Assembly (NCBI RefSeq): GCF_006345805.1
Contig: NW_021834163.1
Coordinates: 1-51,776 of the forward strand
DNA from: Octopus sinensis
Lineage: Eukaryota
DNA length: 51,776 bases
Reading direction: 5' to 3'
Shown one piece after another: positions 4,772-49,958 of this stretch (position 1 is the stretch's first letter; each line of letters starts with the position of its first letter). The translations under genes were made by a program, and so were the position numbers. Below the pieces are notes generated by a model, which did no database searches, was not told the origin of the DNA, and worked only from the letters and a program-made list of their open reading frames with translations.

Positions 4772-5279
4772 TAAACATTACTTTATATAACTAGGGTTCA
4801 GCAAAAAAATAGTAAACTACAGATTCTTCTGTAGGAATTTGTTGCTCTATAAAACACGTGGGTAGACAAGGAAGATTATGAAGTCTCATTCGCATGTTTT
4901 GAATTCGTTAGTACTGAATATCGAAGATGGTTTGTCTGAAGTTACTCGGGTCAGATAGGTATGTTCGATTTTTAGTGCTCTCAAATTTAAAATTACTGAA
5001 ATCTTTGTGCTGATGACAGGAATGTTGGAATAGGGATGGATGTCTAGCATCTCTATATCTAACTAACCCAGAAACGCGTCCACAAGTAATCGAATGCCGG
5101 GTGAACTTTCGTTATTTTTCCCTCTGTGCCTACGTCAATTGTTTTTGAGTATACATTGTCTGGGAGATTCTTCTTATAGTAGAAGAAATAGCTAAATTCT
5201 TTGGCTGCTATTTCTAAAAATTCGGTATGTGGCAAAGCAAATTTTTTTTATGAACCCTAATTATATAAAGTAATGTTTA
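4772..5279 (+). mobile_element. Short inverted-repeat element containing a hammerhead motif (probably Penelope-derived)
   Basis: Arms 4772-4810 and 5241-5279 are reverse complements; internal hammerhead motif; followed by (TA)n. Confidence 0.7.
5005..5085 (+). ncRNA. Minimal type I hammerhead ribozyme motif
   Basis: UUGUG-CUGAUGA(5010-5016)-long stem II-GAAA-CGCG-UC|CACAA. Stem I is UUGUG/CACAA; loop III is palindromic. Confidence 0.75.
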
Positions 5280-5899
5280 TATATATATATATATAAGAAA
5301 TTTTGCCCATGTGTGTGATATTATTTACGAGTGAATGACTTCACAAGTAGAAAAATAAGAGGGTGTAATTGGTTATCGGCATTACTGTAATTGCTGTGGG
5401 CAAGGGAGATAACTGTTCAGCTTTCAGTAAGTGGAGGGGAATATATATGTACAGATAAAAAAAAGGTTTCTAAAATCTTCTTCAGTGAAGGGATTTATGT
5501 ACAGTGATGTAATTGTGAATTGAAATATGTAAAAAGATAAAAGCTGATTTGCTCTTTATGTAGAGTGTATTTATATATATATATATATATATATATATAT
5601 ATATAATATATAATTTTAATCCAAACGGGAAACAAAAAAACAACAACAATGGAACAATTACAGTATTATTATTAATAGGCGCTCAGGAAAAGGAAGCAGG
5701 GAGGTATGACGTTTCGAGCGGAGCTCTTCGTCGGAAACATAAAGAAGGAAGAGAGAGGAAGAAAGATCCCAGAGCGGCAACAGGAAAGAGAAAAAAGACG
5801 ACTGGTGTTTACGAGTTGCACATGGTGAAAGGCGGATGTTTACGAAAACAGAGCAAAATGGGTTTTTAAAGGCAAAAGAGTGGAGACAAGGTTGGTAAC

Positions 5900-6891
5900 G
5901 CAACAGATGTGTGTGTATGTGTGAGTGTGTGCGTGTGCGTGTGTGTATGTGTGTGTGTGAGGCGAGATGGAAAAACAAAAAAATATATATGTGTGTGTTA
6001 GTGTGTGCGTCTGTGTGTAGGCGTGTGAGGTAGGGCGAGATCGTGGTCAGCTTAGCAGACAAAGGTCAGTAGTAAGAAAAAGAAGGAAGGAGGAAGGGAG
6101 GGAGGGGAAGGGGTGGGGGCGTATGTAGCGTGCCAGCGTGTGTTGAGTAGTAGTGTGTGTGTGTGTCCAGTGTCGTGGTGGTATAAATGGCGAGTAGATT
6201 GAATGTCTGTAAGAGTAATGTATATATTTAAGCAATGTGTGTATATGTGTGCGCGTGTGTGTAACGAAAAAGGGGGGGTTAAGGAAAAAGGACTCCAGCT
6301 GAGGGGAAGATGGAAGAGTGGTCCCGCGGAGGCGGGCGTGGGAAAACCCAACGACACGCGACGGTCCCAGGAACGGGCGGGAGGTCTTGTCGGTTCCAAG
6401 AGCGAGGTGCCTGCGGAGCGTATGCGTACGCGAACCAGCGCAAGCGCGTGCGTGCGCGAGCCTGCGAGTATGTGCGTAAGTATGTATGTGTGTGGATGTG
6501 TGAGTGTGTCTGTGTGTATGTCCGGGTGGCAGTGTGTCCGATGAATGTATGTGAGTATGTGTGTATGTATGTGTGTGCATAGATGTATGTCCGTGTGTGT
6601 GTGTGTGTGTATGTGTGTGAGTGTGTATGTATGTACGTGTGGGTGTGGGGAAGTGTGTGTATGTGCATGTGTGTGCGCGTACATACAGGTGTGTGAGTGA
6701 GTGTGTGTGTGTGTATGTATGTGTGAGTGTGTATGTATGTGTGTGTAGGATGCATGTATGTGTATGGGTGTATGTATGCGTGTGTGTATGTATGTATGTG
6801 TATGTGCGTGTGTGTGTGTGTATGCGTGTAGGTGTGCGCGTGTGCATGCATGCATGCACGCATGTGCGTATGTGTGTATATATATATATGT
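5900..6891. repeat. GT-rich compound microsatellite region
   Basis: Long (GT)n/(GTAT)n arrays; the source of spurious HT/VC-rich ORFs. Confidence 0.85.
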
Positions 6892-7061
6892 AATACAGAA
6901 CCCCAGCGATGTTGCACACCTGCAGCAGGAGTTGGACTCAATCTACAGATGGGCTGAGGATAATAATATGCAGTTTAATGCTGAAAAATTCCAGGCCCTG
7001 CGCTACCAGCATCCAAAACTGAATATTAAACATACGGGATACACCGGTCCACAGGGAATTT
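6892..7061 (+). mobile_element. CR1-like LINE RT fragment
   Basis: IQNPSDVAHLQQELDSIYRWAEDNNMQFNAEKFQALRY, near-identical to the minus-strand copy at ~12880-13040. Confidence 0.8.
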
Positions 7062-48494: not shown

Positions 48495-49177
48495 GTATGA
48501 GTTGTCTAGTTACATTTTACACTGATACCCGTATTTATTTACAGAAGCTAAAGCCAATTAATCGCAGGGAAGTTATGCATATCAGTTAATGTTTGTTGCC
48601 TTCCGACAGTTTAAACAAAAGAATAGTAAGACCTACATGACTCTTTTTAGATGAAGAGTTTTGGGGATAGAATATTGTTTCAAAGAGAAATATATTGAAA
48701 ACAGAGCAACAAAAATGGTGAATCGATTGAAATATTTTGAAATATCAAAACTACCGTTAAAACATTACTTCTCAAGGCCGTGCTCTTCACCATGCATCTA
48801 AATTAATCAGAGTCTTTGAGACAGTGAACAATAAAGATAAATATCCTGCGCATGCGAAAAATATTCCATTTCATAAGTATATTGATACATCTAGATATAA
48901 TGAGACATCCCACCCCATATATATATATATATATATATATATATATATATATATGGGGTGGGATATACACACACACATGGATACATATAGCTAAATGTGT
49001 TCAGAAGAAAACGTGTACAAGCATATAGATATTTATATATATATATGTAGACAGGAATTAACATACATACATACATGCATACATACATACATACATACAT
49101 ACATACATACATACATTACCTTTACATATATATATATATATATATATATATGTAAAGGTAAGATCCAAGGATCAAGG

Positions 49178-49525
49178 TGTAGGAAGATAGTAAGATTCGA
49201 GCAGTCCGTAGAAGGTGTATAAAAAACAAACTTTCAGGGACAATAATTGTTTATTGACACAGAAGGTTGTAAGTTTTCAAAGTTCGATAAGCTGAAAAAA
49301 TTGTTTTATAGCTTAGGGTTAGTAGTAGGAGTTGCTGTGTATGCGAATAGAAATCCAATATTAGAGAATGGTGTAGATAGAATCCAGTCTAGATCTGTTT
49401 CATAGCTAGCATAACCTCCGAAGTAGTTATTACCCAAACGTGGGGTAATCTGATAGGTACTCATCAGACCCAAGCGATTCTGCTAGCTATGAAACATATG
49501 TATGGGTTTTATCTGCTCCATTCCC
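49178..49525 (-). repeat. Interspersed repeat with hammerhead-like core (copy of 14930-15215)
   Basis: Minus strand CUGAUGA(49467-49461)...GAAAC(49401-49397); between (TA)n tracts. Confidence 0.65.
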
Positions 49526-49693
49526 GTATATATATATATATATATATATATATATATATTATATATATATATATATATTATATATATATATATATATTAT
49601 ATATATATATATATAATAAATATTAGGGAATAAATCCAAACTTACAGGGAAAAATCAGATTTAGAATTGAATCCAATTTTATAGTAAAATATT

Positions 49694-49958
49694 ATATTAT
49701 ATTAAATTAGAGACAAAACACTATTAGGCAAATCAAACAATGAAAAACTTAATCCAATACATAATATTATTTAATTTATATTATTTAAATATATAACAAA
49801 ATTATTAAAAAAATATAATTAATATCACACTACGATCGTTTCATGCCTGCTAACATCTTCAAATTTTTGAGTCAAATTAAATAATATTATGTATTGGATT
49901 AAGTTTTTCATTGTTTGATTTGCCTAATAGTGGTTTTGTCTCTAATTTAATATAATAT
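49694..49958 (-). mobile_element. Inverted-repeat element with a degenerate hammerhead, in the SLC6 intron
   Basis: ~84-bp near-perfect arms 49694-49777 and 49874-49958. Minus strand reads UUGAAGA-UGUU-agca-GGCA-u-GAAAC-GAUC-GUA. Confidence 0.75.

Follow-up and report, generated by a model that had tools for sequence, protein, structure and literature searches.

Penelope-like insertions with head-to-head ends, a single tail and hammerhead ribozymes at (TA)n sites in Octopus sinensis

Introduction

The closest described relatives of the elements analyzed here are Penelope-like elements (PLEs) of the Hydra clade, whose endonuclease-bearing (EN+) members are characterized, in Craig et al. 2021 (PMC8557442), by a CxCx5C motif, a GIY-YIG domain without CCHH, CxxC/CxH flanks, and RWK and DKT motifs. 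The supplement of that study lists Hydra-1_Obim from Octopus bimaculoides with a (TA)n preference, and its text treats the origin of PLE tandem and inverted structures and the meaning of intron retention as open questions. Here, we analyze a 51,776-nucleotide (nt) stretch of Octopus sinensis DNA (RefSeq assembly GCF_006345805.1, contig NW_021834163.1, positions 1 to 51,776; hereafter the window), which is animal DNA rich in microsatellites and repeats and contains five short elements: E1 (4772-5279), E2 (15355-16423), E3 (29298-29533), E4 (42226-42617) and E5 (49694-49958). An initial annotation of the window had described the five as sequence-unrelated hairpins beside (TA)n, each lacking an open reading frame (ORF) and bearing an internal hammerhead ribozyme, and had proposed that they form a non-autonomous class of Penelope derivatives resembling miniature inverted-repeat transposable elements (MITEs).

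In vitro, the Poseidon PLE protein PAc cleaves and extends both strands of an AT-rich target and is predicted to form a dimer, two internal start sites bound the tail, and uncleaved RNA is used, with no need for hammerhead cleavage (Frangieh et al., PMC11167929; inverted insertions are not treated there). For PLEs, publications already cover the architecture, the hammerhead, the bias toward (TA)n, non-autonomous derivatives and a tail 'often only at one end'. Compared with the Hydra clade as presented in PMC8557442, the tails here measure 80-150 nt (about 200 nt in a sixth family, E6) and not 30-40 nt, the 3' regions reach 1.7-2.1 kb, and the one-tail pattern is counted as a near-strict rule.

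Results

Inverted arms vary between copies and lie at (TA)n sites

We confirmed inverted arms beside (TA)n at all five annotated sites, and the five families are mutually unrelated by sequence (best E >= 0.29), as had been claimed. Family searches returned 435-2,789 first-look candidates per element, which are not copy numbers; after removal of 12 duplicate loci, the analyzed set comprised 191 family copies. An inverted partner was present at 91 of these 191 loci (the E5 share is inflated, because the E5 query contained the arm) and no arm at the other 100, and arm length varied between copies from 0 to 692 bp, as the initial annotation had anticipated. The top family copies start matching at base 38 of E1 and at base 48 of E3, which leaves the left arm out, and the arm of the window copy recurred in place in no other family member. 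Hairpins form afresh with every insertion, and a family's own sequence does not include the arm.

(TA)n was present at 152 of the 182 3' ends of forward segments, at 68 of the 74 outer ends of inverted segments and at 43 of the 100 plain 5' ends, compared with a background of 4.7% in the window and 7.9% in distal flanks. These counts bear out the proposed (TA)n preference; target duplications are unreadable within (TA)n. The adjacency to (TA)n described for the window elements also stands, apart from the left end of E1, which abuts another PLE remnant instead.

Two readings of the hairpins as mobile units were weighed against these data. Inverted ends in a TA context, and the presence in the window of a mariner-like element with 206-bp inverted arms, would suit MITEs moved by a DDE transposase, with the hammerhead there by chance. 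The copies share neither fixed terminal inverted repeats (TIRs) nor a uniform length; their ends are asymmetric, introns have been lost, tandem multimers occur, and one narrow hammerhead pattern has at least 7,128 matches in the genome compared with 230 for the reversed control. Because the arms are variable and spliced copies exist, we consider the MITE reading refuted, and give it a negligible chance. The second reading, that of the initial annotation, is a dedicated non-autonomous class moving as hairpin units. It accommodates the abundance of spliced E5 mini-copies and three closed ORF-less units, E1, E4 and a further family, F7 (585, 490 and 558 bp, respectively). Against it, no two independent copies have an arm/body junction in common, 100 of 191 loci lack an arm, E2, E3 and E5 lead into ORFs, and fixed arm length with a shared inner junction was found in none of the seven families sampled. 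With the hairpin new at each insertion, three families coding, and only E1 and E4 of the original five ORF-less, the proposed class does not hold, and this reading is very improbable.

Two-ended insertions nearly always carry a single tail

In every family, ends fall preferentially at two points, site 1 and site 2, which are separated by 80-150 nt (about 200 nt in E6), with site 2 at the tail end. This one-sided tail of 80-150 nt had been missed at each element in the initial annotation, which otherwise located the arms. Among the 91 partnered insertions, 72 have both outer ends at a site, and 70 of these 72 are mixed (Fisher p = 2e-18), with 31 site 1/site 2, 39 site 2/site 1, 2 site 1/site 1 and no site 2/site 2 pairs. 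The 95 arm-less copies with a typed end stop at site 1 in 52 cases and at site 2 in 43, and if ends were chosen independently, roughly one pair in two would therefore be same-site. The long one may be either of the two ends, and there are also tail-only arms; at locus L319, a 3.1-kb site-1 segment faces a 134-nt tailed arm. The insertions demonstrate copying straight through an uncleaved hammerhead, from two start sites and with one tail. We rejected locus L052, which has tails at both ends, as a counter-example since it is an inverted duplication taking in its flanks. We also considered an accumulation of tailed arms ending at site 1, which did not exceed rough expectation (about 5/40, by eye).

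We favor, at a probability of about 0.68, the reading that these elements are head-to-head, 5'-truncated PLE insertions in which the hairpin likely results from nicking of both (TA)n strands and reverse transcription from two different internal sites of one and the same sense RNA. The twin-priming step taken by itself is probable, at somewhat lower confidence. The one-tail rule and the precisely intron-less mini-copies described below together point to a likely way in which a single RNA is copied into the two strands at a cut (TA)n site. In the proposed sequence of events, an element protein would nick both strands of the (TA)n site, with reverse transcription on one strand starting from site 1 and on the other from site 2, probably through two subunits of a dimer. 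Both cDNAs would end prematurely, and head-to-head joining would follow, in some cases through microhomology of 2-8 nt. Priming at the site copies in the spliced 5' leader would yield intron-less minis of ~240-320 nt ending at the transcription start, and priming at the 3' copy would yield long copies that retain the intron. The template RNA would remain uncleaved, with the ribozyme a passenger that did not cut the copied template. Junction microhomology of at least 2 nt was present in 11 of 15 resolvable junctions, compared with 24% under the null.

In a stricter version, on which we place even odds, twin priming would be programmed: a dimer on one sense RNA would use two fixed sites and leave exactly one tail per two-ended insertion, thousands of minis would stem from those sites in the spliced 5' leader, and full copies would inherit the intron from an unspliced 3' repeat.

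The same PLE insertions might instead acquire their tail after copying, either through an endonuclease that resolves one continuous intermediate asymmetrically or through two RNAs of one source on an asymmetric dimer. Such schemes also yield one tail per insertion, and arm identity does not distinguish a single RNA molecule from a pair with a common source. However, both tail borders are reverse-transcription start sites in vitro (PMC11167929), a very long stagger would be required to produce tails of 80-200 nt, and tail-only arms are more simply explained by an early-stopping cDNA. We regard tail formation after copying as unlikely, while still the most credible of the alternatives to twin priming.

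Several points weigh against the twin-priming reading. The count of 72 leaves out 17 partners with internal ends and 2 with an unresolved forward end. The window copy of E3, one of the two site 1/site 1 cases, was scored as such until its tail was found displaced at 27775-27922 by a Tc1/mariner element, L014, the other such case, has site 1 at both ends with another repeat adjacent, L461 (F7) has a tail at both ends, and the window copy of E1 was counted as site 2 although it extends ~17-30 nt past that site. In E1, E3, E4 and E5, identity between the two arms does not clearly exceed background, the microhomology figure covers only 15 of 61 junctions, all from E5, and splicing was tested in E5 only. 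Neither an ORF-bearing parent, among about 40 copies each, nor a partner protein was found for E1 or E4. Frangieh et al. (PMC11167929) saw no strand difference in start site in vitro, whereas a different site for each strand is implied by the genomic data presented here. Finally, the site-1 and site-2 zones were set after the first data had been seen, and for this reason the rule was tested in two further families, E6 and F7.

In the held-out E6 family (25 loci, 24 of them tailed on the forward end by query design), all 11 site-reaching inverted arms stop at site 1 without a tail, and 2 more end internally. F7 was position-sampled on one chromosome, and mixed ends were seen in 14 of its 15 complete two-ended insertions; L443 (end not fetched), L448 and L460 (two different insertions), L452 (a 17-nt arm, mixed) and three loci without a partner were dropped. 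In 10 of 13 F7 cases, no other insertion is closer to an arm than its own partner (median ~0.994 compared with 0.957), a signal that is weak or absent in the other families.

Spliced mini-copies of the E5 family

Short copies of E5 join an AA|GTATGT donor exactly to a TTTTAG|ATATTT acceptor, minus a GT-AG intron that measures 701 nt in L317 and ends just before stem I of the hammerhead. Of 40 E5 loci, 17 were typed as spliced and 5 as unspliced, with 5 ambiguous and 13 of insufficient length, and the window copy is too short for splice typing; among 10 position-sampled E5-type motifs read by eye, 6 are spliced, 1 is unspliced and 3 are uninformative. In loci selected for an ORF, all 7 hammerhead-acceptor junctions with upstream family sequence are unspliced, and an eighth is truncated at the junction. 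The spliced copies retain 8-35 nt of exon 1, and none retains more than 35 nt. Several share a stop at one AGTTCATT motif, which a TATA-like box precedes by ~28 nt, and this 5' stop, ~30 nt upstream of the intron, likely marks the transcription start. Three exon-1 variants occur among both spliced and unspliced copies, and the minis hence derive from several source lineages and not from one deleted master. We also considered microhomology deletion as the origin of the short form and rejected it, since the common AGATA would give a different junction. At the level of genomic sequence, these junctions demonstrate an RNA intermediate for the E5 minis that is both sense and spliced.

This result bears on the proposal that the inverted copy arises from self-priming (fold-back), possibly on an antisense template, as put forward for rotifer Penelopes in Arkhipova et al. 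2013 (PMC3846280). Some junctions, such as that of L103, are near-perfect palindromes and would fit fold-back. However, fold-back can only duplicate sequence that has been copied before. The segment without a tail nevertheless often exceeds the tailed arm by far in length (L319, tail-only arms), and a first strand that has no tail is unable to supply one. On an antisense template, fold-back is contradicted for E5, as precise splicing of the copies requires a template that is sense. Given that the longer segment can be either of the two, and given the spliced copies, antisense fold-back fails, and we hold self-priming in general to be improbable.

The E5 data resemble those for D. virilis and A. 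vaga Penelope, for which PMC2377424 and PMC3846280 describe an intron shortly after the transcription start within the pseudo-long terminal repeat (pLTR), an inverted pLTR and a tail 'optionally' on one inverted pLTR. Those elements are described there as intron-retaining, with antisense self-priming proposed, whereas E5 has many precisely spliced genomic minis. As a separate observation, the E5 insertions at L261:4096-5571 and L323 are near-perfect hairpins with arms of ~700 bp or longer at 98% identity.

Hammerhead ribozymes

A type-I hammerhead is present in all five families, in agreement with the initial annotation; of the window copies, E1, E2 and E3 have an intact core and E4 a mutated one, and that of E5 is truncated inside the ribozyme. 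Our descriptor comprised the CUGANGA...GAAA-palindrome-UH core, the palindrome and a stem I of at least 4 bp. A strict version with stem II adjoining the core found nothing, and the stem II requirement was relaxed because the core has an unpaired base. The full descriptor finds two motifs in the window (E1, 5010-5086; E3, 29426-29469), compared with a mean of 0.02 in 100 dinucleotide shuffles. In E2 the core is intact with a 2-bp stem I typical of its family; the window copy of E4 lacks G12 and the palindrome, the family motif being GAAA-TCC-A-GGA-TC. Among copies spanning the motif, core and palindrome are intact in 22/38 (E1), 4/20 (E2), 22/40 (E3), 29/39 (E4) and 31/39 (E5). The core is conserved, and helices I-III are compensatory across families, with five different pairs of stem I and palindrome. 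An Rfam scan of the window gave zero matches at the gathering score. Dimer folding energies were lower than twice those of the monomer, a comparison made without a control and not used.

These ribozymes resemble metazoan PLE hammerheads (PMC4209133) in being type I with a short stem I, a palindromic helix III and an unpaired base before stem II, and in occurring as dual motifs 100-700 bp apart on opposite strands. The 2-bp stem I of E2 and the E5 intron ending beside stem I parallel D. virilis Penelope (PMC4209133). They differ in the odd-length palindrome of E4 and in stem II inserts of up to 61 nt. In the E5 family, an ATG at the start of stem II (the first codon after CTGATGA) opens an 18-codon frame, in the same place where the PAc ORF starts; the main E5 ORF starts further on.

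Coding parents and ORF-less units

The window copies lack ORFs, as annotated, yet three of the five families run upstream into reverse transcriptase (RT) and/or GIY-YIG ORFs. Walking upstream, we found an ORF end ~450 nt from the 3' end in E2 (thumb and EN), the end of GIY-YIG (EN) at ~1.7 kb in E3, and an RT and GIY-YIG ORF at ~2.1 kb in E5, with N-terminus, RT and EN in broken frames. The CxCx5C linker, VxY..YIG and a GIY-YIG without internal CCHH occur in all three; CxxC..CxH was found by pattern in E3 and E5 and by eye in E2. KWK and DKT motifs (RIKWK, SDKT) were found in E5, the sole N-terminus examined. Pfam gave no match on E2 and E5 fragments, and minority leads to GIY-YIG/HTH_animal came from the ESM Atlas. 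The order of features in near-complete E5 copies is intron, hammerhead, site 1, tail and an ATG ~65 nt past site 2, and copies reaching further upstream add the TATA-like box and exon 1 ahead of the intron. A partial-tandem pLTR, with the tail running into the ORF, is present in E5 (L382, L375, L388, L389), the sole family examined for it. The EN+ PLE traits found were 5' truncation, an inverted partner, an optional tail and a hammerhead in the pLTR. By their motifs, E2, E3 and E5 are assigned as 5'-truncated ends of coding PLEs with Hydra-clade features. The proposed Penelope-like origin and the hammerhead with palindromic stem III are borne out, and the Penelope-like identity of the elements is nearly certain.

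Several candidate readings were rejected: a GIY-YIG beside an E5 match in L138 proved a chance neighbor, the Neptune-type ORF adjoining E1 has E1 in none of its 24 other copies, Neptune-type families of 775-781 aa show no clear homology to the five termini, the 367-bp period of L097 is a local duplication, and Penelope/Poseidon-type parents are at odds with motifs that point to Hydra. Separately, a young Neptune-type family (L160:1221-3563 and about ten loci) has several unbroken RT and GIY-YIG frames of ~780 aa, with a hammerhead (GAAA-CATATG-TA) 1.47 kb past the stop.

In E1 and E4 the tails loop back to a fixed unit start, giving periods of ~585 bp and ~490 bp, respectively, with one type-I hammerhead per unit and a two-hammerhead tandem in L041. 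No PLE-protein match was found within the E1 and E4 units. F7 is a 558-bp ORF-less family with 70% identity to E1 over 294 nt and up to four units per arm. From their sequence structure, E1, E4 and F7 are classed as ORF-less retrozyme-like tandem units. Like the non-LTR retrozymes described as non-autonomous PLE derivatives in PMC7229834 and bioRxiv 10.64898/2026.07.22.740005, they are ORF-less tandem units with one type-I hammerhead each; compared with those accounts, they directly bear the marks of PLE insertion (two start sites, arms placed head-to-head and a single tail), and thereby provide structural evidence that PLE machinery moves retrozyme-like units. Insertions L449, L448 and L442 of F7 hold up to 4+3 tandem 558-bp units; adjacent units are 99.4-100% identical while insertions differ by up to 12%, an identity that fits copying of a circle or multimer.

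Element copies and neighboring features in the window

The E1 arms (4774-4810/5241-5277) are 92% identical. Its inverted segment (4659-4808, minus strand) comprises the last 37 nt before site 1, the ~100-nt tail and ~17 nt of the next unit's start, and its outer end is contiguous within the unit with the start of the forward segment, a twin-priming-like arrangement. The forward segment (4809-5279, plus strand), the last 470 nt of the 585-bp unit, ends at site 1 in (TA)n and contains the intact hammerhead (5004-5086, plus strand; stem I of 6 bp, palindrome CGCG). On its left, E1 abuts a broken, internally deleted Neptune-type PLE ORF remnant of a different family (3295-4658, minus strand).

E2 has two pairs of arms (15355-15425/16367-16423 and 15467-15537/16243-16314). 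The forward segment (15345-16242, minus strand), a truncated 3' end of a Hydra-type coding PLE, ends at site 1 in (TA)n and holds the hammerhead core (15613-15694, minus strand; palindrome CGGCCG); the inverted arm (16243-16514, plus strand) bears a ~90-nt tail at 16424-16514. A ~225-nt segment of this copy (15801-16025, minus strand) is missing from most family copies, is partly common to L106, and holds a donor-like motif, CAG|GTAAGA.

In E3 (arms 29298-29344/29482-29533), the inverted arm (29298-29344, minus strand) is 47 nt long, and the forward segment (29345-29533, plus strand), the last 189 nt of a ~1.7-kb 3' region of a Hydra-type coding PLE, contains the intact hammerhead (29422-29469, plus strand). 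Its ~150-nt tail (27775-27922, minus strand) has been moved away from the left arm by the later insertion of the Tc1/mariner element (27946-29245, minus strand), which has 34-bp TIRs, lies in the TA tract between arm and tail, and matches DDE_3 above cut-off and HTH_Tnp_Tc3_2 below cut-off.

The E4 arms (42226-42285/42558-42617) are 97% identical; the inverted arm (42222-42289, minus strand) ends at site 1, and the forward segment (42327-42709, plus strand), from the 490-bp ORF-less tandem unit, has its tail at 42618-42709 and a decayed hammerhead at 42414-42473 (plus strand). In E5 the arms are 85 bp each (49694-49778/49874-49958). The forward segment (49614-49873, minus strand) is truncated within the hammerhead, leaving GAAA-CGATCG-TA at 49842, and has a ~80-nt tail at 49614-49693; the inverted arm (49874-49963, plus strand) ends at site 1 in (TA)n. 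E6, overlooked in the initial annotation, lies at 49153-49527 (minus strand) with the same head-to-head design and a tail on one end; a second copy is at about 14924-15295.

Other repeats in the window include an internally deleted mariner-like element (38756-39300), MITE-like in form, with 206-bp inverted arms at 91% and no hammerhead-descriptor match, and a near-perfect 115-bp palindrome (19069-19301) with a tripled 20-bp centre, similar to one downstream of E5 in L315. A broken long interspersed nuclear element (LINE) at 23463-26745 (minus strand) has RVT_1 and weak zf-RVT matches, and two oppositely oriented broken LINE fragments (RVT_1) at 10952-13930 give a 69% inverted match at 11641-12488.

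Discussion

What goes beyond the literature searched is the tail length, the strictness of the one-tail rule and the spliced products; with Repbase, Dfam, Arkhipova 2003/2006 and Lyozin 2001 outside that search, it contained neither a prior count of the rule nor a report of spliced genomic PLE mini-copies. The elements are known debris, yet very abundant, with at least 7,128 matches to one narrow pattern. The warning that they risk misannotation as TIR elements is upheld: TIR-based pipelines could file them as MITEs, and a 2026 octopus repeat annotation uses TIR-based tools, the word 'ribozyme' being absent from its main text. The long E5 hairpins of L261 and L323 are a potential source of long double-stranded RNA, if transcribed.

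Together, the one-tail count and the spliced minis argue against the published antisense self-priming model, and the count and the start-terminated minis provide sharp tests, in the existing in vitro system, for the open questions of Craig et al. If programmed twin priming is true, the inverted ends, the tail and intron retention would all be explained by one mechanism, and retrozyme-like units would ride the same machinery.

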